The notes: generated by a model from the letters alone, not told the origin. A stretch of DNA of 64,000 nt from an uncultured Bdellovibrionales bacterium (GCA_964580285.1 CAZOKB010000001.1:9366-73365), one strand, 5' to 3'. Positions 4,907 to 32,015 are shown, numbered from the stretch's first letter. Program-made: numbers and translations.

Positions 4907-6931
4907 ATGGATACATCGACATTTCGGTTGCAATCGCCTTGGGGTCCAGCCGGCGATCAGCCCAAAGCGATTGCGGCATTGACCAGGGGGATTGAGTCGG
5001 GAGCCTCTTTTCAGACCTTGCTCGGTGTGACGGGCTCCGGGAAGACGTTTACCATGGCCAACGTGATCGCAAATATCGGCAAGCCGACTCTGGTCATTGC
5101 ACACAACAAGACGCTCGCAGCGCAGCTGGCCCAGGAGTATCAGGAATTTTTCCCGGATCACGCGGTGCACTATTTCGTCTCGTACTATGATTTCTATCAG
5201 CCGGAAGCCTATCTCCCGGTGACCGATACCTATATCGAGAAGGATGCTCAGATCAACGAAGAGATCGACCGGTTGCGGCACGCTTCCACGCAAGCACTTT
5301 TGACGCGGCGCGATACGATTATCGTGGCCTCGGTATCCTGCATCTACGGCCTGGGGAGTCCGGCGGAATACGAGAAGAAGAATCTCCGCCTCTCAGTCGG
5401 GACGCCGATGACGCGGACCGAACTGCTCCATACGCTGGTCGCTATCTTCTTCGAGCGGACGAATGCTGATCTTTCGCCGGGTATGTTCCGTAGTCTCGGC
5501 AATCGCGTGGAAGTGATGCCGATATCCGAAAAGTATGTCTACAGCATCGATATCGTAGCGGGTACCATCGGGCATATTGTGAAGATTGATCCGGTAACGC
5601 AGAAAATCTTCGAAGAGCCAAAAGACATTTTCCTCTTTCCGGCCAAACATTTTATTACAGATGAACAAGAGAAAGCGCGCGCGCTCAAGAATATACGGGA
5701 AGAATTGACGCTCCGCTTGGCTGAGCTCGAAGCCGAAGGAAAATTACTCGAAGTCGAGCGCCTCAAGCGACGGACGAATTATGATCTCGCGATGATCGAA
5801 GAAATCGGGTATTGCAGCGGTATCGAAAACTATTCACGACACCTTTCGGGAAAATTGCCTGGCGAACCGGCTGAAACCTTGTTATCATACTTTCCGCACC
5901 TGCCAGATGGCACACCGGATTTTCTTACGGTGATTGATGAGTCGCATGTGACCTTACCGCAGCTGCGGGGCATGTATGCGGGTGACCAGGCGCGCAAAAA
6001 AACGCTGGTAGAATTCGGTTTCCGGCTTCCCTCAGCGCTTGATAACCGCCCGCTCCGTTATGAGGAATTTCTCGAGCGAGTCGGACCGGTGGTCTTCACG
6101 TCGGCTACTCCGGCGGAGTATGAACGCGAGGTGAGCGAACAGATCATCGAGCAGGTGATCCGGCCAACCGGACTCTTGGATCCGCTTGTCGAGGTACGGG
6201 GTATCCGGGCCGATGAATCGGTTCCGTATCCAGGTCAGATCGGCGACTTCATCCGTGAGACGGAAATAGAAGTGGCTCGGGGGAACCGGGTGATCGCGAC
6301 AACGCTCACGAAAAAGATGGCGGAAGATTTAGCGGTCTACCTGAAGGAAAGAGGTATTCGTTCGGAATATCTGCACAGCGATGTGAAGACTATCGATCGG
6401 ATTAAAATCCTTACATCTTTCCGTAAGGGGGAGTTTGATTGCATCGTAGGAGTAAACCTATTGCGCGAAGGTCTTGATTTGCCCGAAGTCTCGTTTATCG
6501 GTATTTTGGATGCCGACAAAGAAGGGTTTCTGCGTTCTGAGACCTCGCTGATTCAGATTATCGGACGAGCAGCGCGCAATGCCAGCGGTCGGGTGATTCT
6601 CTATGCTGATCGCACCACCGGATCGATCGAGTATGCTCTCGGGGAAACCAATCGGCGGCGTAAGCTCCAGGCAGAGTACAATGCGGAGCATGGTATTACC
6701 CCGGCAACGGTCAAAAAAAATATCCATGATATTACCGAGCACTTGGAAAGCGAACATGATAAAGCGGTTCGGGCGAATCTTTCTTTGGATGAACGAATTT
6801 TTTCGAAAGATCCTGCCAAGCTTATCCGTCTCAAGGAAAAGGAAATGAAACAAGCGGTGAAGATACTTGATTTTGAGACAGCCGCCCTTTTGCGCGACGA
6901 AATTCGCGCTCTTCAGTCTCGACAACGGTAG
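4907..6931 (+). CDS. uvrB: Excinuclease ABC subunit B
   Basis: The Walker A motif GVTGSGKTFT is present. The helicase motifs, the C-terminal UVR domain (TAALLRDEIRALQ) and the length are typical of UvrB. Confidence 0.95.
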   Translation: MDTSTFRLQSPWGPAGDQPKAIAALTRGIESGASFQTLLGVTGSGKTFTMANVIANIGKPTLVIAHNKTLAAQLAQEYQEFFPDHAVHYFVSYYDFYQPEAYLPVTDTYIEKDAQINEEIDRLRHASTQALLTRRDTIIVASVSCIYGLGSPAEYEKKNLRLSVGTPMTRTELLHTLVAIFFERTNADLSPGMFRSLGNRVEVMPISEKYVYSIDIVAGTIGHIVKIDPVTQKIFEEPKDIFLFPAKHFITDEQEKARALKNIREELTLRLAELEAEGKLLEVERLKRRTNYDLAMIEEIGYCSGIENYSRHLSGKLPGEPAETLLSYFPHLPDGTPDFLTVIDESHVTLPQLRGMYAGDQARKKTLVEFGFRLPSALDNRPLRYEEFLERVGPVVFTSATPAEYEREVSEQIIEQVIRPTGLLDPLVEVRGIRADESVPYPGQIGDFIRETEIEVARGNRVIATTLTKKMAEDLAVYLKERGIRSEYLHSDVKTIDRIKILTSFRKGEFDCIVGVNLLREGLDLPEVSFIGILDADKEGFLRSETSLIQIIGRAARNASGRVILYADRTTGSIEYALGETNRRRKLQAEYNAEHGITPATVKKNIHDITEHLESEHDKAVRANLSLDERIFSKDPAKLIRLKEKEMKQAVKILDFETAALLRDEIRALQSRQR

Positions 6932-7016
6932 GATCGTGGTATACTTACAAGGTCTGCTCGAGAGAGGGTCGAAGCTTTTCGGGCTTATTCATTAATACAT
7001 AAATACACACGCATAT

Positions 7017-7373
7017 ATGGATGCGAAAAAAATTATAGGCTTGGGGGTGCTAGTGGCTATTGTGGGGGCGCTGGGTGTCGTCATTATCAAACAGATGTCG
7101 ACAGTTACGCGGCCAGCTACCAGCATGACGACTACCACGGTTCCTCAAAACGAACCAGCTGCCAAAAAGGGTCTTACGGAAGAAGCTCAGCTCTCTGTTC
7201 CGGATACGCAGCAGCCGACAACGGTTGATGCGATCGTCGGCGATATCGATAGTGAAATGGTTTCTGATGATGCCGCCGTAACGGATGAAGCTACCGGAGA
7301 AGCTGCGGTTATGGAAGAAGAATCAGGTTCACTTAATGATGTAAGCGAATTCTATGATGACAAAAATCTCTAA
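7017..7373 (+). CDS. Hypothetical membrane-anchored acidic protein
   Basis: The N-terminus has a TM helix. The C-terminus is Thr-, Asp- and Glu-rich and low in complexity. Confidence 0.45.
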   Translation: MDAKKIIGLGVLVAIVGALGVVIIKQMSTVTRPATSMTTTTVPQNEPAAKKGLTEEAQLSVPDTQQPTTVDAIVGDIDSEMVSDDAAVTDEATGEAAVMEEESGSLNDVSEFYDDKNL

Positions 7374-8196
7374 AAGCATCCCATTGTTTCTCGGAGTAGC
7401 TGCTCTCGCCTTTCCGTTCTTGGCAGCAGCCTCGATGTATGAGGATCGTCAAGCAGAACGAACGCAGCGCATGGAAGATCGTCAGGCGAATCGTCAAGCA
7501 GATCGCCAAACGGCCATGGAAGAGCGTCAAGCGGATCGCCAAGCCGCATTCTGTGAGAATTTTACAAGTCGGATTGAAGATATGCAGAGCCGGCTTGCGG
7601 AGCGTAAAGACAAATTTACTGAACGTAAGACACAGCGCATGGAGCGTTTTGCGGAAAAGCGTGATGCGCGTGATAATACGTTGACCGATACTCGTGAAGC
7701 GCAGGATGCTCGGCGAAATGCTTGGTATGAGAAACTTGAAGCAGCTGCCGATACGGACGCTAAGAAAGCGGCAGTTGTTGCCTTTAAGAAAGCGACCGAA
7801 GCGGCCGTGGAAACTCGTCGTGATGCGGTGGATGCTGCGATCAAGGCGTTCCGCGAGGGGGTAGATGCTGCGGTAGCGAGTAAGAAAGATACTCGGTCCG
7901 GCGCAGCTGATACTTTTGCAGCGGCTGTTACGGCAGCTATCACTCAAGCCAAGTCAGACTGTGCTGCCGGGAAAGATGCTGCTACGGTACGGAGCACCTT
8001 CCAAGCAGCCCTCAAATCAGCCCGTACGAACCTTCAGTCTGAACGCCAGGAGAGTGCCAAGTTGGGTGACACTATCAAAGGGCTCGCTGAGACGAAGAAA
8101 ACGGCACTGCAATCAGCGATGGCCACATTCAAGACCGCTATGGATCAAGCTAAGGCTGATCTGAAGAAGGCCTTTGGGGAAGACGCAGTGCACTAG
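7354..8196 (+). CDS. Secreted alpha-helical repeat protein (EDRQA(E/N)RQ repeats)
   Basis: A signal peptide (LFLGVAALAFPFLAAAS) is followed by tandem 11-residue repeats. The DNA encoding them is also tandemly repeated. The rest is Ala- and Lys-rich helical sequence. Confidence 0.5.
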   Translation: MMTKISKSIPLFLGVAALAFPFLAAASMYEDRQAERTQRMEDRQANRQADRQTAMEERQADRQAAFCENFTSRIEDMQSRLAERKDKFTERKTQRMERFAEKRDARDNTLTDTREAQDARRNAWYEKLEAAADTDAKKAAVVAFKKATEAAVETRRDAVDAAIKAFREGVDAAVASKKDTRSGAADTFAAAVTAAITQAKSDCAAGKDAATVRSTFQAALKSARTNLQSERQESAKLGDTIKGLAETKKTALQSAMATFKTAMDQAKADLKKAFGEDAVH

Positions 8197-8220
8197 AAAC
8201 GCAGGTTTTTGCATCAGGCC

Positions 8221-8257
8221 AAGCTCCGTTTTTCAGCGGAGCTTTTGGTTTTTTTCT
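8221..8257 (+). terminator. Rho-independent terminator
   Basis: The sequence is AAGCTCCG-tttttcag-CGGAGCTT followed by TTGGTTTTTTT. Confidence 0.6.
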
Positions 8258-8279
8258 GTCTGATTGCTACAATATTCCT

Positions 8280-8615
8280 ATGTCTCGGCTTCAATCTTTT
8301 TCCAAAGAAAGTTTTGCGACTGCGGTGGAGCGGGTCGTAAAACGTATCCCGAAAGGGAGTGTACTCTCGTATGGAACCGTAGCAGTACATGCCGGGTTTC
8401 CTGGTGCTGCTCGTGCGGTAGGGAGTCTGATGAAAAAAAATCATGACCCGAGTATTCCGTGTCATCGGGTGATCCGGGGTGATGGTCGCTGCGGAGAATA
8501 TAACGGTGGCGGAGAGACGCAGAAAGCGCAACGCTTACGCCAGGAAGGGGTGGTCCTTGAGAGGAAGATTCTTGGCGGTCAGATAATATGGCGGGTACGA
8601 GGATATCGAAACTGA
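8280..8615 (+). CDS. MGMT-family protein (methylated-DNA-protein-cysteine methyltransferase DNA-binding/active-site domain only)
   Basis: The MGMT active-site motif IPCHRVI is present. The 111-aa protein lacks the N-terminal domain, as in YbaZ-like proteins. The catalytic Cys is retained. Confidence 0.7.
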   Translation: MSRLQSFSKESFATAVERVVKRIPKGSVLSYGTVAVHAGFPGAARAVGSLMKKNHDPSIPCHRVIRGDGRCGEYNGGGETQKAQRLRQEGVVLERKILGGQIIWRVRGYRN

Positions 8616-8616
8616 T

Positions 8617-9309
8617 ATGCATGCACGACTGATTATTACGGCAGATGATTATGGTCTCCGCGAAGCTTCAGAACCGATACTCGACTTAGCACGTGCTTCG
8701 CTTATTGACCGAGTAGCCGTACTTGCGCGTTTCGTTTCGGAAACGGAGGCTCAGCAATTGCTTGCAACCGGTGTGTCGATAGATATCCACCTCGAGTTAA
8801 CTCGTCTTTTGGGTCGAGGAGAGTCTGAAGGAGATGCTTTTCTGGTGCGTATGGGAAATTTTCTCTGGTGTCTGTTGGTAGGAAAACTGTCTCGAAGGAA
8901 AGTGGAGCAGGAATGGCGCGAACAGTTGGATCTTTTTCAACAGAAGTTTGGACGGCTGCCGGACGGCATGAATTCGCATGAGCATATCCATTTTTTTCCG
9001 CCTCTGTTCCGGTATTTTTTGGAGGTAGCTCGAGAATACGGTATAGGCTATGTCCGTTTTGGATCGTACGATACGATTGGTTGCCTGCGCTGGCATGCGG
9101 CAGAAGAAGTCATTTCTTGTTTGCACCGAGTAGACCGGTATTTCTGGAAACATGCACCCCTCACTACTTCGGAATACCTGGTGAGTGGTGACTGGATTGA
9201 TGACCCGGTAGATTTTCTTCGGCAGCTCCCTGCTGGGCGCACGGAAGTGGTGGTGCACCCGGAACGACCGCAGGAAAGAGTTCTGGTGCGAGCTTTGCAA
9301 CAGGGGTGA
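8617..9309 (+). CDS. YdjC/ChbG-family carbohydrate deacetylase-like protein
   Basis: The N-terminal ITADDYGL motif is characteristic of YdjC/ChbG/HpnK. Confidence 0.65.
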   Translation: MHARLIITADDYGLREASEPILDLARASLIDRVAVLARFVSETEAQQLLATGVSIDIHLELTRLLGRGESEGDAFLVRMGNFLWCLLVGKLSRRKVEQEWREQLDLFQQKFGRLPDGMNSHEHIHFFPPLFRYFLEVAREYGIGYVRFGSYDTIGCLRWHAAEEVISCLHRVDRYFWKHAPLTTSEYLVSGDWIDDPVDFLRQLPAGRTEVVVHPERPQERVLVRALQQG

Positions 9310-9448
9310 CAATAACAGAACGATATGCTAGGCTAAGAAGATTTCTTTTTCTGTATCCAGGAAGCCTCTCTTTATTTCCAGTTCTGAACCGAGAGTGAAG
9401 AAGCAAGGTTTTTTTGGAAGAAGTATTCATATTATTGTTCTCACGGCC

Positions 9449-12016
9449 ATGACCACCAAGTCGAAAATCAAGAAAACAGAAGCGAGTACGCCTTCCGAAT
9501 GGATTGAGGTGCGGGGTGCGTGTACGCATAACCTCAAGAATATCGATGTCGATATGCCACGGAACCGGATGGTGGTCTTGACCGGGCTTTCCGGGTCAGG
9601 CAAGTCATCACTTGCGTTCGACACTATTTTTGCCGAGGGGCAGCGGCGTTACGTGGAATCTTTGTCCGCGTATGCGCGCCAATTCTTGAATACGATGCAG
9701 AAGCCGGATGTGGATGAGATCCGTGGTCTTTCGCCAGCTATTTCCATTGATCAGAAATCGGCGAGCCGTAATCCGCGTTCCACCGTGGCGACGGTTACGG
9801 AAATCTATGACTATCTCCGGGTGCTCTTTGCGCGACTCGGTCGGCCGCACTGCCTCACCTGTGATCGCGAGATCAAGAAGCTTTCGTCCGAAGAGATGCT
9901 GGAATTGGTCCGTGAGCGAGTAAAGAAAGCGAAACAATCAGGAAATCTCATTATTACCGCTCCGGTGGTTCGCGGGCGCAAAGGGGAGTACTATCAGCTG
10001 CTCTATAACGCTCTCAATAAGGGATTCTCAGAAATTTTTCTTGATGGGAAACGGCACAGTTTACGAGAACAAGTTCTTCTCTCAAAACACAAGAAGCATG
10101 ATATCGATCTTATTGTCGACGATATTCCTTTGCATGAGTTTGCTCAGTTTCCACAGACTTCAGAGGAACGGTTGTCAGAGGCCGTTGAGCGAGCGCTCGT
10201 AGAAAGCGATGGACTCGTGAAGGTGATGCTGGATGGAGAGGCAGTGATCCTTTCAGCGCGTTTCTCGTGTCCGTATGATGGCTTCTCGTATCCGGAAGTC
10301 GAGCCGCGGCTTTTTTCTTTCAATTCACCCTATGGTGCCTGTCAGGCCTGCAATGGTCTTGGGACAAAGCATTTTTTCGGTGACGAACTGTGCGAAGTGT
10401 GCCATGGTACCCGGTTGCGCGAAGAAGCGCTGCATATTTTGGTAGGTGGCAAAAATATCGTTGAAATTGTAGCGTTAACCACCCGTGAGGCCCAAGCTTT
10501 TTTTGAAGCGCTCGCATTGACCCCGCGTGAACAGCAGATCGCTTCGGTCGTGCGACGGGAGATTGGTGGTCGGCTCCAGTTTTTGCTCAATGTCGGTTTG
10601 GATTATCTCACCCTGGATCGGCGCGCCAATACGCTCTCCGGCGGCGAAGCGCAGCGTATTCGTCTGGCATCCCAGTTGGGGAGCCAGTTAGTCGGAGCGC
10701 TCTATGTGCTCGATGAACCGACGATCGGTCTGCACAGCCGAGACAATGATCGTCTTATTGAGACCTTGAAAAACCTCCGAGCACTCGGGAATACCATCCT
10801 TATCGTTGAGCATGATGAGGATACCATTTATGCGAGTGACTATATTGTGGATATCGGTCCGGGAGCTGGAGTGCACGGCGGAGAAGTGGTGGTGTCGGGG
10901 TTTTTGGAAGACCTTTTGATGGCGAAAAAAAATACTTCGGGGTCATTAACACTCGCCTACTTGCGTGGTGAAGAAAAAATACCCGTTCCGAAAATCCGTC
11001 GGCATAAGGATAAAGGCTCGCTCAAGGTGCGAGGTGCCCGGCTTTTCAATATCAAGGATCTGAATGTTGATGTGCCGCTGGGGCGCTTTATCTCCGTGAC
11101 TGGCGTTTCGGGATCGGGTAAGTCTACCTTTCTTTACGATATTCTGCATAAGAATCTGCAGGCCCGCTTTGATCGCCGCTACAAATCGAACGAAGTCTTT
11201 CATTGCAAGAGTTTTTCGGGCAGTGAATATCTTTCACGTGCAGTCATGATTGATCAGTCACCGATCGGGCGCACGCCGCGTTCTAATCCGGCGACCTATA
11301 CTGGAGCCTGGACGCATGTGCGGGACCTCTTTGCTTCGACGGAAGAGGCGCGGGTACGGGGCTGGAAGAGCGGCCGGTTTTCTTTCAATCGTCCTGGTGG
11401 ACGATGCGAAACGTGTGAGGGGAATGGTTTCATCGCGGTGGAGATGCACTTCTTGCCGACGGTGTATGTACCCTGCGATGTCTGTGATGGCAAACGCTTC
11501 ACGAAAGAGACACTCGAAGTGAAGTACAAGCATAAAACTATCCATGAGGTGCTCGAGATGACAATTGAAGAAGCTCATGCATTCTTCTACGAGATTCCGG
11601 CGATTGCGGATCGGCTCAAAACGCTCAACGAAGTCGGGCTCGGTTACTTGAAGCTTGGTCAATCAGCAACGACACTTTCTGGTGGCGAGGCTCAGCGGGT
11701 GAAAATCGCTTCCGAACTCTATCGACCGCATGTGGAACGAACCATCTATCTGCTTGATGAGCCGACCATTGGTCTGCACTATGCTGACGTGAAAAAGCTG
11801 ATCGAGATCCTGGACCGGTTGGTCGATAAGGGGAATACGGTGATGACGATTGAGCATAATTTGGATTTCATCAAATCTTCCGACTATGTCATTGATATCG
11901 GTCCTGAGGGTGGATCGGGCGGAGGGAAAATCGTGGCCAGCGGCACGCCGGAAGAAGTCGCTAAGGTAATCGAATCGTATACGGGGCATTATTTGAAGAA
12001 AGTCTTACGGGCTTAA
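9449..12016 (+). CDS. uvrA: Excinuclease ABC subunit A (shorter paralog, ~855 aa)
   Basis: Two ABC ATPase modules are present ([22 protein letters not shown] x2, GVSGSGKST) with zinc-finger CxxC pairs. The start is set at MTTKSK. The supplied ORF extends to 9395 with an unlikely leader. Confidence 0.9.
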
Positions 12017-12053
12017 GGGTGTTTAACAAACTTTAACCAAAACACAAAGAGGT

Positions 12054-12644
12054 ATGGAACATGTTTTTATCTTTCTTACTCAAGCCCTGCCTGATCATTG
12101 GATGCTGGCAACATTTATTGGAGCACTTGTGGCCGGAGAAAATGCGATTTTGGTTGCCTTGATCTTTGCTACAAAACAATCGAGCGGTATGATACTAGGA
12201 GTGTTAGTAACGGCCTACGTGGCTACCTTGATAGCAGATATCTGCTGGTACGTGTTGGGGAAGTATGGGTTTGCGTCTATGAACCGTAAACAGGCTTCGC
12301 ATGAAATTCCGGAATCAATGATCAAAAAACTCTTTGATAAGCATATTTTTTCCTCGCTCTTGCTGATTAAGTTTCTTGTTGGGTTGCGTGTTGTGCTCAC
12401 ACTCTATCTGGCTACCAAAAAAGAATTGACCTTCTGGCGTTACCTCTGGTTTGATTCACTCGGTATTATTCTCTTCCTCGGCGTCTTATTAGCTCTTGCT
12501 TGGTTTGTGATCGGTGGGACAGGAAATGCTCTGGATACTTACCAGATGATCGTGAGATTGGTTACGACGCTTGTCTTTATGACCTTTGTGACTCACTTAG
12601 CAACTTTCCTCATTCGTCGGCGAGCCCAGAGTAGCGAGTTATGA
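12054..12644 (+). CDS. Hypothetical polytopic membrane protein (weak DedA/VTT-like)
   Basis: The protein has about 5 TM helices. No diagnostic motif was found. Confidence 0.45.
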   Translation: MEHVFIFLTQALPDHWMLATFIGALVAGENAILVALIFATKQSSGMILGVLVTAYVATLIADICWYVLGKYGFASMNRKQASHEIPESMIKKLFDKHIFSSLLLIKFLVGLRVVLTLYLATKKELTFWRYLWFDSLGIILFLGVLLALAWFVIGGTGNALDTYQMIVRLVTTLVFMTFVTHLATFLIRRRAQSSEL

Positions 12645-13243
12645 GTGTTACTCGTGAATCGGTACTGTACGATGATTTCGGTCATTCGATCCTGATCCGT
12701 CGGCGACGCGGTCTCAAACAGTTGCGTATCGCTGTGGCTCACGATGGTCGCGTGACAGTGACAGCAGCGCAGATCGTGCCTTTCTTTTTGATTCAGCGTT
12801 TTGTTGAACGGAAGCGAGAATGGATTACTCGGACGCAAGAAAGTTTTCGAATAAAAGGATATGCTTCGAGGCTTTCGGATGAAGCACGGCGAGCACGTTT
12901 TCTGAAGTATCGGAGTGAAGCGCTCGTAATAGTGACAGAGCGAGTTCAGCAGTTGAGTCAGGAATTCGAATGTAGCCCGGGAAACATTACGATTCGCGAT
13001 CAGCGGACACGGTGGGGGAGCTGCTCGGCACGAGGAGCACTCTCGTTCAATTATCGGATTGTTTTTTTACCAGAGCATTTGGTGGACTATATCGTTGTAC
13101 ATGAACTGTGTCATCTCCGTGAGCTGAACCACGGGCCTCGTTTCTGGCGGTTGCTCGAGAGCATACTGCCGGATGCTGAGCTCCGTCGCGAAGAATTGCG
13201 ATCACTCTCGCTGCTCGATGCCGGACACGGTGACGGGCTGTAA
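12641..13243 (+). CDS. DUF45/YgjP-like zinc metallohydrolase (M48-type HExxH)
   Basis: The HELCHL motif sits in a YgjP-like context (LVDYIVVHELCHLRELNH). Confidence 0.65.
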   Translation: MSVTRESVLYDDFGHSILIRRRRGLKQLRIAVAHDGRVTVTAAQIVPFFLIQRFVERKREWITRTQESFRIKGYASRLSDEARRARFLKYRSEALVIVTERVQQLSQEFECSPGNITIRDQRTRWGSCSARGALSFNYRIVFLPEHLVDYIVVHELCHLRELNHGPRFWRLLESILPDAELRREELRSLSLLDAGHGDGL

Positions 13244-13272
13244 AAGATGTTTTTTATACACAAGACCTCGAA

Positions 13273-13360
13273 GATCTCCGGGGAGCACAAGGGTTTTTCC
13301 TGATGCCCGAGACTTCCGAGGCGATAGCAAGGGAAAAATTGCTTGTGTTCCACGGAGAAC
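13273..13360 (-). repeat. Dispersed hairpin element, copy 2 (reverse orientation)
   Basis: The core is GCCCGAGACTTCCGAGGCGATAGC. The arms tctccggggagcacaagggtttttcc and gggaaaaattgcttgtgttccacggaga are mutually complementary. Confidence 0.8.
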
Positions 13361-13384
13361 TATAACCCAGGAGGTGTAACAAAG

Positions 13385-13393
13385 TGGTATACT
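13385..13393 (+). promoter_or_regulatory. Extended -10 element TGgTATACT
   Basis: The sequence agTGgTATACTgag lies about 30 nt upstream of the ATG at 13423. Confidence 0.35.
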
Positions 13394-13422
13394 GAGTATG
13401 TATTATCCTTCATACCAAAACT

Positions 13423-14652
13423 ATGTGGTCATGGCTGCAGGGAAAGACGAATGAGGCTCCGAAGAGTGGAGCGGGACATGAAGAGGTCAGTGAGAAACGG
13501 ACGACCAAGGTCGGCTATCTCCTCCTGTTTTTCATGGGGCTCTTCATCGTGATCATCGGGCAGACGATCTTTAGTGATATCGGCCGGATACCGAATCAAC
13601 CAGAAGGCCTCTCTTCATGTTCGCGAGAATTTGCTGCATTACTGGATTCTCGCTGGGTCGATGCGCCGATTACACATACGGATGTCTACGCGACTGGATA
13701 CGATGAGATAAGAGACACCTACCAGGTGGATGATTTGACGAAGCAGCAGTGCCGGTTTAGCCGATACGAAGAAGCATCGGGTGCTGCCGCCACCTTGCGG
13801 GCCGCCTACCCGGACCTCAAGCGGTACTACGCGCTCGAGGATCCGATTAATCGGGTAGAAAGAGATCTGAATACTCTCAAACCAGAAAGGACTCTAAAAC
13901 AGGAAGCATACGATATCAGTTTGCAGGAGCGTCAGGCGGGTATTCCGACGCCGGTGATGGATTCGGAGCAGGCGGGGAGTTCCCTTAAGACGGATACGCA
14001 AGCCGTCATGAGGCTCGAGTCGGAGAGAAAGGCTCTGTTGTCCGAGCGGGCAGCTATCTTGGATGCGATCAGAGGCACCGCAAGCGGTTTTGAGACTGAA
14101 CGGCAGCGGGCGAAAGAGCTCTATCTATCAGCTTACAACTGGTATCGCATCAAGGTCTTCCTTCTCTCATTGCTTTTCGTTCTGCCGTTGTTCCTGTATG
14201 CGCTCAGGCGGTATTTTTCTTGGAAGCGCGAGGATAGCCCATATACTATCATCGTCGGCGCACTGCTTGGCGCTTTCTCAGTACTCTTGTTGCAGGTCGT
14301 TGGCATGTTCCTCTATGAGATCATTCCGCGTCGGATTATCCAATTGCTGATCGAGTTTTTCACGCAGTTTGCATTTCTGCGCTACGTGCTGTATTACGGA
14401 TCGGTGCTGCTGGTGATCGTCTTGTTCGGTGGCATCGTGTACTATATCCAGAAGACGGTCTTCAGCCGGGAGGCGGTCGCGCTCAGGTCTCTCAAGGATC
14501 GCAAGTGTCCGATCTGTTCCTTCTCAATCGACCTCTCCATGAAGCACTGTCCGAAATGTGGGCACCGGCTACAGTCCGAGTGCGCGAGCTGTCACGGAAT
14601 GCGCTTCGAGGACCTGCCGGTGTGTCATCAGTGTGGTGCGCGCCGGGGATAG
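13423..14652 (+). CDS. Hypothetical membrane protein with a C-terminal double zinc ribbon
   Basis: An N-terminal TM helix is followed by a coiled-coil region and then 3 TM helices. The C-terminus reads CPICS...CPKCGH...CASCHG...CHQCG. Confidence 0.55.
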   Translation: MWSWLQGKTNEAPKSGAGHEEVSEKRTTKVGYLLLFFMGLFIVIIGQTIFSDIGRIPNQPEGLSSCSREFAALLDSRWVDAPITHTDVYATGYDEIRDTYQVDDLTKQQCRFSRYEEASGAAATLRAAYPDLKRYYALEDPINRVERDLNTLKPERTLKQEAYDISLQERQAGIPTPVMDSEQAGSSLKTDTQAVMRLESERKALLSERAAILDAIRGTASGFETERQRAKELYLSAYNWYRIKVFLLSLLFVLPLFLYALRRYFSWKREDSPYTIIVGALLGAFSVLLLQVVGMFLYEIIPRRIIQLLIEFFTQFAFLRYVLYYGSVLLVIVLFGGIVYYIQKTVFSREAVALRSLKDRKCPICSFSIDLSMKHCPKCGHRLQSECASCHGMRFEDLPVCHQCGARRG

Positions 14653-14694
14653 TCTGTTGCCAAGGAACGTTCGGAATGAGTGTGTCTAATGTAT

Positions 14695-14786
14695 CGTCTC
14701 TCCGAGCCACGAAAGAAATTTCCCCCTTGCTATCGCCTCGGAAGTCTCGGGCATCGGGGAAAACTTCTTTCGCGTCCCGGGAGACG
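14695..14786 (+). repeat. Dispersed hairpin element, copy 3
   Basis: The core is CTTGCTATCGCCTCGGAAGTCTCGGGC. The arm cgtctctccgagccacgaaagaaatttccc pairs with ggggaaaacttctttcgcgtcccgggagacg. Confidence 0.8.
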
Positions 14787-14910
14787 ATTGACCCAGGAGA
14801 GATCTCGATGAATAAAATAATCTTTTTCATATCCGGGGGGCGTTCTAAGAGGATATCGAAAAAAGAAAAAGGACAACGGTGAGGTTGTCCTGGGTTGGGG
14901 GGGGCGGAGA

Positions 14911-15264
14911 CTAGTCGTAGTCTTCCGGCCGTTCGCCGGCGGCAGCCATTTGGCCGGTGAAAGCGCGTCGGTGGACGGGGAGCTTCTCCAGCGGTGGAGT
15001 CACGGGTTTTGAAGGAGAGACTGATTGCGACTGGATCTTCTTTTTAGCTTTTTCGGCCCAGAGCTTCTGATCGGTGCCGAGCGAGCGCTTGATGCGCTTT
15101 TCGACAGCCCGAAAAAGATAGTTGTAAGTCGCCTTTCGGGTTGGATCTGAATGAAAGACACCTTTTTTATGAACAGCACTGGCAAAGGCAGCCTTGAAAT
15201 CAAGATCGTTTGCGAGACCAAGGATAACCTGGTCGCGGAGGGCACACTCGAATTCTGAAGACAT
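14911..15264 (-). CDS. Hypothetical protein (117 aa, basic)
   Basis: The ORF has a plausible ATG. It is divergent from uvrC. No homology is recognised. Confidence 0.45.
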   Translation of the reverse strand: MSSEFECALRDQVILGLANDLDFKAAFASAVHKKGVFHSDPTRKATYNYLFRAVEKRIKRSLGTDQKLWAEKAKKKIQSQSVSPSKPVTPPLEKLPVHRRAFTGQMAAAGERPEDYD

Positions 15265-15326
15265 AGACTTCTCCTTGCGTAACGTACTGTTACATATTAT
15301 ACTACTTTTTCATGTTTTAGTCAACT

Positions 15327-16577
15327 ATGCCAAAGATACCGTGGACCGAAAAGATGGATATCGCTGTCTGGCGCCAGGATACGGTGCTGTTGCCGGAATG
15401 TCCGGGGGTTTATTTTTTCTTGGGAGAAGCAGAGGAAATTTTGTATATCGGGAAAGCAACCTCGCTGCGGGACCGGGTCCGGAGTTATTTCTCGGGAGAT
15501 ATCATAGAGACGCGCGGCCCGAAGATTGGGCTGATGCTTGAACGGGCGCAGATGATCGCATATCGAGTCACGGACTCGGTACTGGAAGCCCTGCTTTTGG
15601 AATCGAGACTGATCAAAGAGCACCAGCCGATCTACAATACGGATGAAAAAGATGACAAGAGCTTTAATCATGTAGTGATGACGGATGAAGAGTTTCCGCG
15701 TGTACTCCTGGTACGCGGACGGGATTTTGCGCAGGGGAAGTTTCGTGATCCGGTGCGGAAAATCTTCGGACCGTTTCCGGCTGGGACACAGCTACGTGAG
15801 GCGATGAAGATTGTACGGCGGATTTTTCCATTCCGGGATACGTGCGTACCCGGGAGCGGAACATTGTGTTTTCAAGCTCAGCTTGGTTTGTGTCCGGGCG
15901 TATGTGCAGGATCGATGCCGAGAGCCGAGTATCAAAAGCGGATTCGCAATATAGAACTCTTTTTTGAAGGCAAGAAATCGTTGGTAGTGAAAGCGATTGA
16001 ACGAACCATGCGAACGGCGGCTCAGGAACTCCGCTTTGAAGAAGCTGAGCAATGTAAACGGCAGCTTTTCGCTCTCTCTCATATCCAGGATCTAACGCTC
16101 GTCAAAGATGATTTGAGGGCGGTGCAGCCGCACCGGATCGAAGCGTATGATGTGGCGCATCTCGGTGGGGAGGAGACGGTCGGGGTCATGACAGTGGTTG
16201 AGCGTGGTCGACCAAACAAAGATGAATATCGGCAGTTCGTGTTGCGAGATGAACACGGAGGGAATGATCTTACAGCCCTTGAAGAGGTCTTACACCGTCG
16301 GCTGGGTCATGCGGAATGGCGTTGGCCGGAAATTATCGTGGTGGATGGTGCGTTATTGCAGCAGGGTGTGGCTGAGCGCTTATTAACTGAAGCAGGTTTA
16401 TTTCTTCCGGTGATCGGTGTGGTTAAAAATGCTAAGCATCAGCCTGACCACCTTATTGGACCAGAGGGGCTTCTGGAGCGGTTTCGTGCGGATGTATTGC
16501 TCGCTAACGCTGAAGCACACCGTTTTGCTCTGGCTCTCCATCGTAAGCGTAAACGTCAATCTTTTTTAGCAACCTAG
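15327..16577 (+). CDS. uvrC: Excinuclease ABC subunit C, short form lacking the C-terminal (HhH)2 domain
   Basis: The GIY-YIG motif is present (PGVYFFLGEAEEILYIGKATSLRDRV). A UVR domain (FEEAEQCKRQLFAL) and an RNase H-like endonuclease region are also present. The protein ends at 416 aa with no helix-hairpin-helix tail. Confidence 0.85.
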   Translation: MPKIPWTEKMDIAVWRQDTVLLPECPGVYFFLGEAEEILYIGKATSLRDRVRSYFSGDIIETRGPKIGLMLERAQMIAYRVTDSVLEALLLESRLIKEHQPIYNTDEKDDKSFNHVVMTDEEFPRVLLVRGRDFAQGKFRDPVRKIFGPFPAGTQLREAMKIVRRIFPFRDTCVPGSGTLCFQAQLGLCPGVCAGSMPRAEYQKRIRNIELFFEGKKSLVVKAIERTMRTAAQELRFEEAEQCKRQLFALSHIQDLTLVKDDLRAVQPHRIEAYDVAHLGGEETVGVMTVVERGRPNKDEYRQFVLRDEHGGNDLTALEEVLHRRLGHAEWRWPEIIVVDGALLQQGVAERLLTEAGLFLPVIGVVKNAKHQPDHLIGPEGLLERFRADVLLANAEAHRFALALHRKRKRQSFLAT

Positions 16578-16629
16578 AGGGGGGCGAAACGGATCTGGGT
16601 AGACACCGTGTCTTTGACGGAGCGGGGTG

Positions 16630-16658
16630 TTGACATTTTAAAAAGGGCATGGTACAAC
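16630..16658 (+). promoter_or_regulatory. Sigma70-type promoter TTGACA-N17-TACAAC
   Basis: The -35 hexamer at 16630-16635 is a perfect match. A 17-nt spacer follows, then the -10 hexamer TACAAC at 16653-16658. AGGAGAG and an ATG at 16692 lie downstream. Confidence 0.5.
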
Positions 16659-16691
16659 GAAAGACCCCTCTTTTTTGAGAAGGAGAGAAGT

Positions 16692-17036
16692 ATGAAGTGG
16701 ATGAGTCGAGTTGTTTTTATAGGAATCTGTATCTTGGTCACCATGACAGCATTGAGACGAGAAGAACATGGGGTCCTTTGGGGTCTTACCGCTCTGATTG
16801 TCTCTCTCGTTTTGTTCCTTTGGATGCTGGAACGGCAACGGAAATCCGTCTTGTTGGCTGAATTAGTGCAGGTGGACAGGGAAATGCATAGGTCTACGAA
16901 TAGTCTCGTGCATAGTCGGCTTTCTGCTCGACGGCAAGCCATTAAACATGAGCTGACTCAACGTTTTGGGATGACGTCTCAAACAGTTGATCAGCATTTG
17001 ATACGTTCCCATGAGCGGCGAAAAACGCGTCGCTAG
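16692..17036 (+). CDS. Small basic membrane protein (114 aa)
   Basis: The start is set at the ATG with the RBS AGGAGAG, downstream of the predicted promoter. The protein has two TM helices. The supplied ORF start at 16608 overlaps the promoter. Confidence 0.45.
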
Positions 17037-17066
17037 CCGGTACCCTTGGTGCCGGCTTTTTCTTTG
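17037..17066 (+). terminator. Rho-independent terminator (imperfect)
   Basis: The sequence is GCCGGTACCC-TTG-GTGCCGGC followed by TTTTTCTTT. Confidence 0.45.
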
Positions 17067-17140
17067 TGTTTACAGCCTCAAAGAAAAGCAGTACAATGAA
17101 AAAACTGTATCGATTTTTTTGAGAGCTTGCATTAAGGGGT

Positions 17141-19948
17141 ATGCCAGAAAAAAAACCGGTGATCGAAGTGCGGGGGGCGCGGGTGAATAACCTGAAGAAT
17201 GTAAGCGTCGATATTCCACGCAATGCGCTCGTGGTGGTGACGGGTCTTTCCGGATCCGGAAAATCCTCCTTGGCTTTTGATGTTATTTTTGCGGAAGCGA
17301 ATCGGCGCTATGTCGAATCGCTTTCTTCGTATGCCAGAAATTTTCTCGAAGGGTTCGAGAAGCCGGATGTTGATGCTATCAACAATCTTTCACCAGCAAT
17401 TTCTATTGATCAGAAAAGCGTGTCACGCAGTCCGCGTTCGACAGTGGGGACCATGACCGAAGTGTATGATTTTCTTCGGGTACTTTTTGCAAAAGCTGGA
17501 ACACCCCATTGCCCTGTCTGTGGAAAAATGCTTGCGCGCATGACGGTACGCCAGGTGATGGACGAGCTCTTGCTGCTCCCGGATCGTATGGGCATAGCTA
17601 TTTTGGCTCACAGTAATCAGACTGATGGGAAATCAGAACGGGCAGCGTTAGAGATGATTGATCACTGGGGATATGTGCGAGTGCGCCGAGAAGGGGAGAT
17701 TATGCCCATTGCGGATGCCTTGGCTTCCGCCTCTGCTTCTGAAGAGAAATCTCTTGATGTGGTGATCGACCGGATCGTGATCGATCAGGCTCGGCCGGAT
17801 AAGGAGCGTTTATTGGATTCTTTAGCGACAGGATTCCAGCTGGGTCAGGGAACACTCACGGTGACACTGAATGGGAGCGGTGAGGAGCGGGTGTATAACG
17901 ATGAATATCGTTGTGATGCTTGCCATATCCGCTTACCCGAGCCGACACCAAGTTCCTTCTCGTTCAATAATCCGGATGGGGCCTGTCCGAAGTGCACCGG
18001 TCTTGGGAAAACGCTGGAATTCGATCCCGAATTGATCGTGCCAAACCATAATCTTTCCTTGATGGAAGGCGCTATACGCCCGTGGAGTAAGATGAATGGG
18101 GAGCGGCAGCGCGAAAGCGGTCCGATGCAGGAGTTGGCTCAACTAGCAAAGCGTCTGCGCTTCTCTCTTTCGGTGCCGGTAAAGAAGCTTTCAGTGAAAC
18201 AGCTCAAGGCAGTGTTGTTTGGCGAGGAAGGATGGACAGAAGATGCGCGGAAGTTCCGTGGCGTGATCGCTTTTCTCGGAGAGAAGTATCGGGATACGAA
18301 ATCAGATCATTTGCGGCAAGAAATCGAGACATTCATGCAGTCGCATGTGTGTCCGGAATGTCATGGGCAACGCCTGAAAGCAGCAGCTCTTTCGGTACGG
18401 GTATTAGGATACTCAATTTTCGATTTGGCAGACATGAATGTAGAAGGTCTGATACGGAGAGCGAAAGAACTCAAAGCAAGTATTGTGAAAGCCGGTCACG
18501 AAAAGGCGGTGATTGATACTCTATTTCGTGAAATGGAGACGCGGCTTGTGGCAGTGGAGAAAGTCGGTCTTGGATACCTTTCGTTGTCGCGTGGCGCCGA
18601 TACGCTCTCTGGGGGTGAAGCGCAGCGGATCCGGCTTTCAGTGCAGATGAAATCGGGACTTTCGGGGATTATCTATGTTTTGGATGAACCCTCGGTTGGA
18701 CTGCATAGCCGGGATACGGATCGACTTATTGGAGCCTTGCTTGATCTGAAATCAGCGAACAATTCGCTCGTGGTCGTCGAACATGATGTGGCGATTATGC
18801 GTCAGGCGGATTATGTGGTGGATCTCGGTCCGGGTGCTGGTACAGAAGGTGGTGAAGTGATTTTTGCTGGAACGCCAGAAAAACTCTTGAAATCGAAGGT
18901 GCTCACGGGGGAATACCTTTCAGGAAGACGGAGGGTGTCTGAGAAGAAAAAAGCGCGCAAGTGGAATGGGGAAAGCATCACTGTTCTGGGAGCTAAAGAA
19001 CATAATCTCAAAAATATTGATGTGGATATTCCGTTAGGCATGCTCGTATCGATTGCGGGTGTTTCGGGATCAGGCAAGTCATCTTTGGTACACGATATCC
19101 TTTCGCGAGCTTTGGCGCAGCATTTTTATCATGCGAAGACTGAGCCGGGGGCCCACAAGAAAATCACTGGTCTTCAGCATATTGATAAGGTAATCACCGT
19201 GAATCAGGATCCGATCGGCCGGACGCCGCGTTCGAATGCAGCAACCTATACGGGGGTGTTCAGTCTCATTCGAGATGTGTTTGCGGCCACTCCGGAAGCC
19301 ATCAAAGAGCATTTTTCGGCGACGCATTTCAGCTTCAACATGAAGGGCGGTCGCTGTGAGGCCTGTCAGGGTGGCGGATTGCGCAAGATAGAAATGTATC
19401 TTTTACCGGATGTGTATGTGCCTTGCGAAGTATGCAACGGAACGCGCTATAATACCAAAACGCTGTCTATTGAATACCGAGGGACTAATATTTCCAGTGT
19501 TTTGCGCATGACGGTGTCTGAAGCGCGTCGTTTTTTCCTGGACCAACCGCATATAGAAGAAAAACTGCGTGTACTTGAGGAAGTAGGGTTGGGGTATCTT
19601 GTATTAGGCCAGAGTGCCACGAACCTTTCCGGAGGCGAAGCACAGCGTATTAAGCTGGCGACAGAATTGGCACGTAAATCGACAGGGAAAACATTGTATA
19701 TTTTGGATGAACCAACGATCGGGCTGCATTTCGAGGATGTGCGCCGGCTTTTGGAAGTACTGGAAGCTTTGGTGGACCGGGGGAACAGCGTTTTGGTAGT
19801 GGAGCACAATATCGATGTTATTCGGGCATCAGACTGGGTAATTGAACTCGGACCGGATAGCGGCGAGAAGGGGGGCGAACTGATTTTTTCTGGTGAGCCG
19901 ACTAAGCTCAAGGCTTGCAAGAAGAGCGCCACGGCGAAATACCTCTAG
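17141..19948 (+). CDS. uvrA: Excinuclease ABC subunit A paralog (full length, 935 aa, four N-terminal CxxC pairs)
   Basis: The motifs [22 protein letters not shown] x2 and [10 protein letters not shown] are present. The CxxC pairs are CPVC, CDAC, CPKC and CPEC, with CEAC/CEVC later. Confidence 0.9.
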
Positions 19949-20037: not shown

Positions 20038-20976
20038 TTGATTTGGATTTTGAACTTTGTTGGTATGTACCGTCTTTCTAAAGATATTCTCGACACCGTG
20101 ACGTACTATGATGTCTTTGATTATCCGCTTTCGGTGTTTGAGATATGGAAGCATCTCCTGACTCTTCAGGAAGAAGAGGTGCGCCCATCCACCTATAGAG
20201 AGGTTTTTGTGGCAGTGCGTGCAGAGGTCTCTCGAGGAACACTGGCTTGGGAGCGAGGATTTTTCTTTCTTTCTGGTCGGCAGGGTTTGGTAACAGAACG
20301 TATACGCAGAGAGAAACTATCCGCAGCGAAGCTTAGGCGCATGCAACGTTTAGCATTGTTGCTCCGCTGCGTTCCGTATGTGCGTTTTGCGGGAGCTACC
20401 GGAAGCTTGTCGCTGAAGTACGGAGACCTTGAAAGTGATTGGGATCTTTTTGTAGTGCTTCGGGCAGGAAAAATCTGGACGGGGCGTGTGATACTGACCG
20501 GTATACTCTTCATGCTTGGCAAGTGGCGGCATGGAAAAAAAATCCGGAACCGGGCCTGTCTCAATTATTTTGTGACGGATGAAAGCCTAGAGATCGGTAC
20601 CCAGGATCTTTTTTCTGCCCACGAATACCGTTTTATGATCCCTTTGTTTGCGTACACGCTGTTTCAGAAGTTCGAGTTGAAAAATCGTTGGATGGCTCGC
20701 TTCAAACCTAATTTTTCGCTGTCAGAGATTCGACCGTTTTGGTGTCAGGAAAGGACCCTGACAGCGCTCCGGGTGCAGCGGTGGCTTGAGCGTATTATCG
20801 ATCTCTTTCCGGTAGAGGCCTTTTTGGGCAGGCGACAGAAGGCAAGGATCGCCCATAATCCGAAGACGCATTGGGAGGGAAGTTATATTGAAGCGAATGA
20901 TCGGATGTTGATCTTCTTACCACGTCCGCGTGGCCCTCGAGTCTATGAGGCGTTCAAACAGAGACTCCGGGTATAG
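20038..20976 (+). CDS. Pol-beta-superfamily nucleotidyltransferase-fold protein (orphan)
   Basis: The minimal NTase motif GATGSLSLKYGDLESDWDLFVV (G[SG]...SDxDhhh) is present. The alternative start MYRL is at 20065. Confidence 0.5.
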   Translation: MIWILNFVGMYRLSKDILDTVTYYDVFDYPLSVFEIWKHLLTLQEEEVRPSTYREVFVAVRAEVSRGTLAWERGFFFLSGRQGLVTERIRREKLSAAKLRRMQRLALLLRCVPYVRFAGATGSLSLKYGDLESDWDLFVVLRAGKIWTGRVILTGILFMLGKWRHGKKIRNRACLNYFVTDESLEIGTQDLFSAHEYRFMIPLFAYTLFQKFELKNRWMARFKPNFSLSEIRPFWCQERTLTALRVQRWLERIIDLFPVEAFLGRRQKARIAHNPKTHWEGSYIEANDRMLIFLPRPRGPRVYEAFKQRLRV

Positions 20977-20986
20977 TGCTTTTTTG

Positions 20987-20995
20987 TGGTATACT
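20987..20995 (+). promoter_or_regulatory. Extended -10 element TGgTATACT upstream of pilC
   Basis: The sequence tttTGTGGTATACTgaa lies about 110 nt upstream of the pilC ATG. Confidence 0.35.
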
Positions 20996-21103
20996 GAAAA
21001 AACTAAGCGTTATTTGGTGGTATCAGTCTTACGTTCGGGAACGAAAGTGAAACTTTGGTTTCGTCGATTGTGTTTGGTCATAAAAAAACAAAAAAAACTT
21101 GGT

Positions 21104-31160: not shown

Positions 31161-31238
31161 AGCAGGCAAAAGCACAGGATGAGGGATGAATTTCCGTGTT
31201 AGTATGGAGGTGCTATGACGATGAAATCTATGAAAACA

Positions 31239-32015
31239 ATGACACCGCTTTCTCTGGTTTCTTGGAACGTGAATGGTATCCGGGCCGCTGAACGGAAAGG
31301 GTTTCTTGAGTGGCTCAACCACCATAAATATTCTATTGTCTGTCTCCAGGAGACAAAGATCTCGCATCCGGATCAGTTATCGGATTCATTGGCACAGCCG
31401 CCGGGCTATTTCGCCTATTTCCATTGTGCAACCGAGAAAAAGGGGTACAGCGGCACCGCTGTCTATACTCGCGAAGAGCCATTTGAAGTAAAGACTTTTT
31501 TTGGAGACAATCTCCTTTCAAAAGAGGGGCGCATGATGGAACTGCACTTCAAGGATTTTGTGCTGCTCAATATCTATTTTCCGAATGGTGGGTCGGGTGA
31601 AGAGCGGCTGCGGTACAAGATGCGTTTCTATACGGAATTTCTCGAATATATTTCCGAGCTAGTCCGGCAAGGAAAAAATATCGTGTTCTGCGGCGATGTG
31701 AATACGGCGCATCAGGAAATTGACCTCGCTCGTCCCAAAGAGAATGAGAAGATTTCTGGATTTCTACCCATAGAGAGAGCCTGGATGGATGAGCTCGTTG
31801 GAGCAGGATTTATCGACACATTCCGGAGGGCGGAACCCGAGACGGTGAAGTATTCCTGGTGGGATATGAAGACACGGGCCCGCGAGCGCAACGTGGGTTG
31901 GCGGATTGATTATTTCTTCGTGAATCAGGGTTTTGTTCTACGGGTGATGGAAACGGAATACCTGAATGATATTGTGGGGTCGGATCATTGTCCGGTACTG
32001 CTTAAGATCGCTTAG
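31239..32015 (+). CDS. xth: Exodeoxyribonuclease III (AP endonuclease)
   Basis: The motifs LVSWNVNGIRA, CLQETK and GSDHCPV are present. The start is set at MTPLSL. The supplied ORF start is 31215. Confidence 0.85.
   Translation: MTPLSLVSWNVNGIRAAERKGFLEWLNHHKYSIVCLQETKISHPDQLSDSLAQPPGYFAYFHCATEKKGYSGTAVYTREEPFEVKTFFGDNLLSKEGRMMELHFKDFVLLNIYFPNGGSGEERLRYKMRFYTEFLEYISELVRQGKNIVFCGDVNTAHQEIDLARPKENEKISGFLPIERAWMDELVGAGFIDTFRRAEPETVKYSWWDMKTRARERNVGWRIDYFFVNQGFVLRVMETEYLNDIVGSDHCPVLLKIA

Follow-up and report, generated by a model that had tools for sequence, protein, structure and literature searches.

An UvrA without insertion domain and a divergent full-length UvrA paralog in the nucleotide excision repair neighbourhood of a Moranbacteria-type bacterium

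Which of two structurally different UvrA proteins serves nucleotide excision repair (NER) when both are encoded next to uvrB and uvrC? This question is raised by a 64,000-nucleotide stretch of DNA deposited as an uncultured Bdellovibrionales bacterium (GCA_964580285.1 CAZOKB010000001.1:9366-73365, hereafter the window), in which uvrB (4907-6931, 674 amino acids, aa), uvrA1 (9449-12016, 855 aa from its ATG or 873 aa from an upstream GTG at 9395), a short uvrC (15327-16577, 416 aa) and a second uvrA, uvrA2 (17141-19948, 935 aa), all lie on the + strand. A preliminary description of the window had recognized these four genes, and their identities are backed by Pfam and NCBIfam. It had also proposed that the shorter UvrA is a class-II-like protein, with a role in drug or intercalator resistance, and that the longer one is the canonical copy. 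We favour another explanation, to which we give a probability of roughly 0.8: the NER neighbourhood is a conserved one, UvrA1 is an ordinary UvrB-loading sensor minus its insertion domain, UvrA2 is an additional paralog of the Moranbacteria, and neither protein belongs to class II.

We analyzed the domain content of UvrA1. The UvrB-binding domain was present (PF17760, E = 9e-20; UvrA_inter at residues 155-260), and the Pfam insertion-domain family PF17755 was absent. Compared with the Geobacillus stearothermophilus (formerly Bacillus stearothermophilus) chain 2r6f_A, UvrA1 matched over chain residues 23-304 and then again over 417-957, and the break between these blocks coincides with the insertion domain. 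In an alignment of 120 homologues of each UvrA paralog together with E. coli UvrA, all the 121 members of the short-UvrA family showed a gap at E. coli residues 290-401, which form this domain. At the level of the zinc modules (+ strand), module 1 of UvrA1 (CLTC at 9851-9862 and CPYD at 10268-10279) brackets the retained UvrB-binding domain. In module 2 (CQAC and CEVC, 10340-10402), a linker of 13 residues (nucleotides 10352-10390) replaces the insertion domain of about 112 residues, and both CxxC pairs are intact. The CxxC pairs counted earlier in the N-terminal halves (CPVC, CDAC, CPKC and CPEC in UvrA2; CLTC, CQAC and CEVC in UvrA1) were confirmed, and the shorter stretch before the first LSGGE motif of UvrA1 is real. 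However, the reason implied for the missing pair was mistaken, as the lost pair is the second half of zinc module 1 (CPYD) and the two pairs bracketing the insertion are both there. Likewise, UvrA1 has indeed lost one inserted domain, but not in the class-II-like manner that had been suggested: the insertion domain is gone and the UvrB-binding domain is kept. Since the alignment found both domains in UvrA2 only, the structural difference between the paralogs stands.

To define the spread of this architecture, one genome per species was scanned, which gave 80 related loci with 66-82% identity to UvrA1, each genome being viewed through at most 22 kb around the locus. None of the 80 uvrA1-type genes encoded an insertion domain. 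The spacing at the zinc-2 junction was identical in 78 of these loci, which argues for one ancestral deletion. The fourth zinc-1 ligand was Asp instead of Cys (CPYD) in 120/120 UvrA1 homologues, and the first half of the same module is itself CxxH in E. coli UvrA; judged from these alignments, CPYD represents a variation of the ligand and did not result from the domain loss. The same Cys-to-Asp change (CxxD) was observed in a UvrA with the full domain set from Candidatus Blackburnbacteria (P0376), another group of the Candidate Phyla Radiation (CPR). The change would therefore be older than the loss of the insertion domain, and this fits a descent of the short UvrA from a CPR-type UvrA that still had it.

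Apart from this deletion, UvrA1 is intact in both ATPase modules, the UvrB-binding domain, the DNA-binding arginines of signature domain II and the zinc-3 hairpin. As in UvrA2, there are two ABC ATPase modules, each with its Walker A lysine (K37 and K646), two LSGGE signatures and Walker B motifs. Using the list of functional residues from PMC3025350, we observed that the short-UvrA family keeps K37, K646, R216, G502, R712, R722, R724, R730 and all the zinc-2 and zinc-3 cysteines; position 222 is Glu in E. coli and in the window UvrA1, and Q, E or D across the family. Both proteins scored above the cut-offs of the curated UvrA equivalog models, with 1241.5 bits for UvrA1 and 1201.5 bits for UvrA2 against NF001503 (cut-off 1147), and 1180 and 1153 bits, respectively, against TIGR00630 (cut-off 729.8). 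The AlphaFold2 model of UvrA1 had a predicted local distance difference test score (pLDDT) of 72, with about 80-89 in the UvrB-binding/zinc-1 region and a low-confidence junction loop. Its best fold match in Foldseek was 3uwx_A, the UvrA chain of a UvrA-UvrB complex (E = 3e-80), and class II structures ranked lower.

These features bear directly on the class of the two proteins. Class II UvrAs are defined as having neither a UvrB-binding domain nor zinc module 1 (PMC9328131, PMC10192343), and in the class II protein Ecm16, deletion of the insertion domain abolished both DNA binding and drug resistance (PMC10192343). Both paralogs of the window keep the UvrB-binding domain and zinc module 1, and UvrA1 is without the very domain that class II retains and needs for DNA binding. 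Similarity gave the same picture: UvrA1 scored 941-1033 bits against class I chains (1033 for 2r6f) versus 604 for D. radiodurans UvrA2 and 465 for Ecm16, and the identity in its fold matches was 48-54% for class I versus 36-37% for class II, so that UvrA1 is not closer to the D. radiodurans UvrA2/Ecm16 group. With the class II proteins (D. radiodurans UvrA2, 2VF7; Ecm16, 7SH1; DrrC), UvrA1 shares its overall length and the status of being one of two UvrA-family copies in a genome. However, these proteins have no UvrB-binding domain or zinc module 1 and both keep and depend on the insertion domain, whereas UvrA1 shows the reverse and UvrA2 has both. With class I UvrAs (E. coli; G. stearothermophilus, 2R6F/3UWX; C. 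thermocellum, 9GXK), both paralogs share the ATPase modules, a UvrB-binding domain in zinc module 1, and zinc modules 2 and 3. UvrA1 differs from them by its 13 residues in place of the insertion domain and by Asp at the fourth zinc-1 ligand, and UvrA2 by G502K and the loss of R722, R724 and R730, although it is colinear along its whole length. The class I feature of an insertion domain inside zinc module 2 is found in UvrA2 and not in UvrA1. UvrA1 departs from class I in one defining feature and from class II in two. Because the UvrB-binding domain and zinc module 1 are kept and the insertion domain is gone, its layout is the opposite of class II, and by domain content neither paralog is a class II protein.

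We then looked at gene order. Of the 58 related loci whose flank was long enough, 48 had a uvrB gene upstream on the same strand, at a median distance of about 1 kb, and a short uvrC of 397-483 aa lay downstream in 35 of 43 (median gap 367 nucleotides), so the clustering noted earlier is not due to chance. The usual place of uvrA1 is between uvrB and a short uvrC without the (HhH)2 domain. Its reading frame is intact, with 77-91% identity across more than 120 protein clusters. By synteny and conservation, the short UvrA is the standard UvrA of this lineage, and this synteny with uvrB and uvrC backs a role that we consider most likely for UvrA1, the support of UvrB loading and UvrC incision. 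The neighbouring UvrB has all the features of its family: a helicase core, the UvrA-interaction domain 2, a C-terminal UVR motif (Pfam ResIII, UvrB_inter, Helicase_C, UvrB and UVR) and an equivalog-level score of 933 bits against NF003673 (cut-off 743). For this lineage, such a cluster is nothing unusual.

The UvrC of the window is also shortened. Compared with E. coli UvrC, about 135 residues are gone between the UVR and RNase H-like domains (E. coli residues ~250-385), the entire C-terminal (HhH)2 domain is missing, and PDB matches were limited to the two nuclease domains. Pfam and alignment showed that the GIY-YIG residues, the four-cysteine motif, the UVR motif and the RNase H-like endonuclease are retained, with D399, D438, D466 and H538 invariant. 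The protein has the nucleases, UVR motif and catalytic residues of UvrC and is without its full-length features; its TIGR00194 score of 278 bits is just under the equivalog cut-off of 285.45. We rejected the possibility that it is a Cho protein, as the RNase H domain is present (E = 2e-29) and the NF007833 score was 68 bits against a cut-off of 367. It shares the GIY-YIG domain, Cys-rich motif, UVR motif and RNase H-like nuclease with its catalytic Asp/Asp/His residues with the engineered D. radiodurans UvrC-Δ(HhH)2, and differs from a typical UvrC by the absence of (HhH)2 and of the ~135 residues between UVR and RNase H domain. Because the engineered D. radiodurans protein remained able to incise on both sides, although its 5' cut was weakened (PMC10085695), a natural functional UvrC without (HhH)2 is plausible by analogy.

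In contrast to UvrA1, UvrA2 has the full class I layout, as had been described: PF17760 (E = 1e-15) and PF17755 (UvrA_DNA-bind, residues 295-396, E = 2.8e-21) were both detected, the protein is colinear with 2r6f end to end, and its zinc module 2 (CPKC and CPEC, 17984-18361, + strand) encloses an insertion domain of 118 residues. Nevertheless, it is not the standard copy. Over 641 core columns, UvrA1 was 63% identical to E. coli UvrA, UvrA2 was 54% identical to E. coli UvrA, and the two paralogs were 53% identical to each other. The two families are fixed for different residues at 94 positions; the E. coli residue is that of the short family in 44 cases and that of the UvrA2 family in 27. G502K was present in 117 of 120 UvrA2-family members, at the position where G502D gives a damage-discrimination mutant of E. 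coli UvrA (PMC3025350). R722 is replaced by E/K, R724 by E/A/D and R730 by H/Y, leaving non-basic or acidic residues at three of the four positions (R712, R722, R724 and R730) that were mutated together in the DNA-binding-defective quadruple mutant of E. coli (PMC3025350). The family also carries G78N and V506S, at a contact pair of the C. thermocellum dimer interface, and Q63N in the DNA "wedge" (residues from PMC12796330). R216 is invariant in both families, and most of the dimer-interface residues are conserved in both. Taken together, these substitutions point to remodelled DNA-contact and dimer-proximal surfaces in UvrA2.

UvrA2 is also restricted in its distribution. In homologue lists and locus neighbourhoods it was found in Moranbacteria-type records only, and it was absent from about 60 non-Moranbacteria neighbourhoods. 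In the most divergent member (L017), UvrA1 was 76% and UvrA2 61% identical to its counterpart in the window. A neighbour-joining tree (100 bootstraps) recovered each of the two families, the short clade and UvrA2, as monophyletic (100%). UvrA2 stood on a long stem, with 2% support as sister to the short clade and 21% for its placement; this tree was thin on single-module class I outgroups, the representative search being dominated by two-module UvrAs of 1600-2300 aa. The roles implied by the preliminary description are therefore inverted: the short UvrA is the conserved, syntenic copy with the key residues kept, and the long one is lineage-restricted, faster-evolving and changed at G502, R722, R724 and R730.

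The genomic context of uvrA2 was compared across loci. In seven of eight contexts (the window, L003, L006, L084/85, L086, L087 and L088), uvrA2 lay directly 5' of a type IV pilus cluster, the next gene starting about 3-120 nucleotides after it. The order was a ~305-aa protein, pilC, a CarboxypepD_reg protein, pilin-like genes, pilM and pilN, with pilX also in the cluster. In the window, the ~305-aa protein (20038/20065-20976, + strand) is Moranbacteria-specific, with 383 homologues and no Pfam match, and it is followed by pilC (20930-22324, + strand; T2SSF, E = 4e-58). Five of the seven pilus-linked contexts had uvrC as the gene 5' of uvrA2, and the two others had a Na/H exchanger and a sugar epimerase, respectively; the pilus link persists where uvrC no longer adjoins uvrA2. 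The eighth context, L017, is without the downstream pilus gene set. The L018 locus was considered as evidence of an ancestral uvrC-pilus adjacency and rejected, since it holds a different pilB-pilC pair (29% identity). By consensus scan, a strong terminator-like hairpin (17035-17057, + strand; 10-pair stem then a T-run) and a promoter-like site (17069-17097, + strand; TTTACA-17-TACAAT) precede uvrA2, and the same scan gave no + strand terminator-like site between uvrA2 and the next gene. The scan therefore makes a single operon of the four repair genes improbable, and uvrA2 may instead share a transcript with the pilus genes.

These observations can be assembled into a mechanism. UvrA1 would most likely act as a homodimer, together with UvrB and the shortened two-nuclease UvrC. 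It would contact DNA solely via signature domain II and the zinc-3 hairpin, its intact UvrB-binding domain would load UvrB, and the complex would then be handed over to the short UvrC. The expected cost would be a poorer discrimination against undamaged DNA, which a very small genome might be able to bear or for which transcription-coupled loading might compensate; we speculate that the little competitor DNA in such a genome may explain the domain loss. UvrA2 would probably open its own transcription unit with the pilus cluster, and would most likely supply insertion-domain-dependent lesion recognition, alone or paired with UvrA1.

An engineered precedent exists for UvrA1. The E. coli UvrA Δ290-400 protein (Manelyte 2010, PMC3025350) still supported incision and transcription-coupled repair and, with a substrate of 50 bp, could not be told from the wild type; with plasmid DNA it acted slowly, on long DNA it discriminated damage poorly, and it performed relatively better in Mfd-dependent repair. 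The natural gap at residues 290-401 matches this deletion almost to the residue. Unlike the engineered protein, UvrA1 is conserved lineage-wide under purifying selection, stands alongside a shortened UvrC, and is known here from sequence.

Several points weigh against the explanation that we favour. Cryo-electron microscopy places the insertion domains at the centre of DNA clamping and of its transfer to UvrB (PMC11985968) and, if this role is general, a homodimer that has none of them might sense damage weakly. A UvrA with insertion domain could also be encoded by other Paceibacteria in a different part of the genome, beyond the segment viewed around each locus. The promoter- and terminator-like sites before uvrA2 are consensus matches only, and the origin of UvrA2 is not settled by a tree placement at 21%. 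As for mfd, a search confined to the DNA of the window and of the related loci matched just the UvrB-homology region of uvrB, and we found nothing usable in the literature on mfd in CPR bacteria.

Tandem UvrAs, in which two modules are fused in one polypeptide, offer another way to read the pair. We examined 105 two-module UvrA representatives of 1600-2300 aa (P0241-P0390, e.g. P0242, P0258 and P0260), and counted their layouts from the number of residues between aligned zinc ligands, as a count from profile hidden Markov models (HMMs) under-called divergent insertion domains. The commonest layout, in 39 proteins, was a module with an insertion domain followed by a module without it; the reverse order occurred in 4, two complete modules in 33 and tandem class II in 19. 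Named examples of such mixed fusions came from Fibrobacterales and Planctomycetota. In the 39 mixed fusions, the insertion-domain module had Arg at R730 in only 6 and kept R216 in 34. The module without the domain had R730 in 23 and R724 in 26, and Arg at R216 in 12. The mixed fusions look like pseudo-dimers with one good UvrB site, as far as residue patterns can tell. Many tandem UvrAs (chlamydial-type model NF001885 and the fusions studied here) pair a module with and a module without an insertion domain, paralleling the pair in the window, but each of them is one polypeptide (1600-2300 aa), they belong to other phyla, and the window pair is unfused. The fusions that were tested scored below the NF001885 cut-off.

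By analogy, UvrA1 and UvrA2 of the Moranbacteria could form an asymmetric heterodimer, the unfused equivalent of the tandem UvrAs, in which one protomer would give the insertion domain and the other an intact signature-II arginine patch. In favour of this possibility, the commonest two-module layout has the same composition (39/105), the fusions show complementary residue loss (R730 in the first module, R216 in the second), UvrA2 has lost R722, R724 and R730 in the same direction while UvrA1 keeps them, and most dimer-interface residues are conserved in both families. However, the fusion modules were not specifically related to either of the window families in the neighbour-joining tree, which makes the likeness one of analogy and not of homology. 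Moreover, the UvrA1 form is unchanged in lineages where no UvrA2 was seen, and G78N and V506S, fixed on both sides of a contact pair, could equally mark a self-matched homodimer. We regard the heterodimer as a tentative and rather unlikely alternative.

A second alternative is a division of labour where both genes are present, with UvrA2 as the main global-genome sensor and UvrA1 as an auxiliary loader, for example in transcription-coupled repair. The bias of E. coli UvrA Δ290-400 toward transcription-coupled repair, the structural work that calls the insertion domains essential for DNA coordination, and the position of uvrA2 directly after uvrC in five of the seven pilus-linked contexts would agree with it. 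Against it, three of the four signature-II arginines of the DNA-binding-defective mutant are missing from UvrA2, its G502K sits at the discrimination-mutant position, UvrA2 evolves faster than UvrA1 (61% versus 76% identity in L017) and it is absent from the ~60 non-Moranbacteria neighbourhoods. We find it doubtful, somewhat more so than the heterodimer.

The view that the 855-aa UvrA is class-II-like and confers drug or intercalator resistance outside core repair, with the 935-aa UvrA as the canonical sensor, is very improbable and contradicted by the mapped domains. It draws on the near class II length of UvrA1 with a domain lost, and on the presence of every class I domain in UvrA2. However, UvrA1 retains the two elements that are absent from class II by definition, Ecm16 requires the domain that UvrA1 has lost, the scores of 1033 bits for class I 2r6f versus 604 for D. 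radiodurans UvrA2 speak for class I, the uvrB-uvrA-uvrC synteny holds across the lineage, and the Pfam families of the window proteins include no biosynthetic or efflux genes nearby. It is hardly credible that the short uvrA is a pseudogene or that faulty assembly or binning produced the second one, as the unusual length of the short gene and nothing further suggests it, whereas the frame is intact and conserved across the >120 protein clusters, the same junction recurs in 78/80 loci, the base composition of the window is uniform, and both genes share a contig in independent assemblies (L003, L006 and L017), so the pair is not an assembly artefact.

A broader scenario can be drawn from these data, although we hold it to be improbable as a whole. 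A class-level lineage of the CPR would run NER with a UvrA without insertion domain and a UvrC without (HhH)2, and the Moranbacteria would have added an arginine-stripped, insertion-bearing paralog, forming a heterodimer with one intact UvrB-binding site, maybe co-transcribed with pilus/DNA-uptake genes and acting on incoming DNA. If true, both DNA-clamping add-ons, the insertion domain and (HhH)2, would be dispensable in nature, and the Moranbacteria heterodimer would be the same solution as the one that Planctomycetota and Fibrobacterota reached with their gene-fused tandem UvrAs.

Studies disagree on what the UvrA insertion domain does. As Manelyte et al. (PMC3025350) relate, the domain seemed dispensable in an early in vitro study, and a G. 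stearothermophilus deletion is also cited there. In E. coli, the domain was found important for discriminating damage (PMC3025350), and cryo-electron microscopy in 2025 made it central to the clamping, melting and hand-off of DNA (PMC11985968). A lineage with a natural loss at the boundaries of the experimental deletion is a ready-made natural test, and the direct comparison of UvrA1 with a sister paralog that keeps the domain makes a testable system. In the literature we found no description of a natural UvrA without insertion domain, engineered deletions being the sole matches, and nothing relevant on UvrA in Patescibacteria. If class IIb (Marszalkowska et al. 2013) designates UvrAs without insertion domain, the architecture of UvrA1 already has a name. 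The short UvrA, UvrA2 and the two-module fusions are all annotated "excinuclease ABC subunit UvrA", and the domain-level diversity of repair in ultra-small bacteria is therefore invisible in current databases.

Regarding the host, the closest homologues of both UvrAs are named Candidatus Moranbacteria, Moraniibacteriota and Patescibacteria. All the listed open reading frames (ORFs) of the window that match a family lie on the + strand, and the GC skew is positive in every 2-kb segment, consistent with a long leading-strand stretch. Because of these homologue names, the co-oriented ORFs and the GC skew, the window is a chromosomal stretch of a Moranbacteria-type CPR/Patescibacteria bacterium. 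Its base composition is even along the whole length. The remaining genes are of housekeeping type (type IV pilus, cell-wall synthesis, LepA, DnaJ and SHMT), and an Rfam scan of the 64 kb gave no tRNA, rRNA or other family above threshold. The record titles of the 80 related loci name Moran-, Lloyd-, Taylor-, Nomura- and Zambryskii-bacteria, Paceibacteria, Parcubacteria and Minisyncoccia, and some "Saccharibacteria" or "Bdellovibrionales". Many third-party-assembled records of this locus (L001, L007, L008, L010, L012, L013 and L018-L072) bear the title "uncultured Bdellovibrionales" or "uncultured Candidatus Saccharibacteria"; such titles seem unreliable, to judge from the gene order of these records and from their identity of 67-82% to Parcubacteria records that are named.

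Between uvrB and uvrA1, two hypothetical ORFs (7017-7373 and 7354-8196, + strand) had no Pfam or PDB match. Homologues of the second one (280 aa) lie between uvrB and uvrA in L001-L014 and L074, which are Moranbacteria-type loci. The pair is followed by a terminator-like hairpin (8221-8244, consensus pattern match). Next comes a gene for a 111-aa MGMT-family protein (8280-8615, + strand; PF01035, E = 1e-24; TIGR00589, 64.6 bits against a cut-off of 46.4), which consists of the C-terminal DNA-binding/active-site domain only and has the IPCHRVI motif; its position is kept in Moranbacteria-type loci. As the active-site PCHR cysteine is present, we rejected the idea of an alkyltransferase-like (ATL) protein channelling lesions to UvrA. 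A YdjC-like protein (8617-9309, + strand; PF04794, E = 5.5e-26) is encoded directly 5' of uvrA1, a position kept in L001-L014.

Elsewhere in the repair neighbourhood, a 409-aa protein (13423-14652) has a C-terminal double zinc ribbon and matched nothing else, and a minus-strand ORF of 117 aa (14911-15264) had no family match. The best promoter-like match of the scanned region lies just 5' of this ORF on the minus strand (15324-15296, TTGACT-17-TATAAT, 11/12). Near the repair cluster we also observed genes for an ExoIII/Xth-type endonuclease (31215-32015) and for RarA/MgsA (32030-33265), which brings the DNA-repair genes to seven within about 28 kb.

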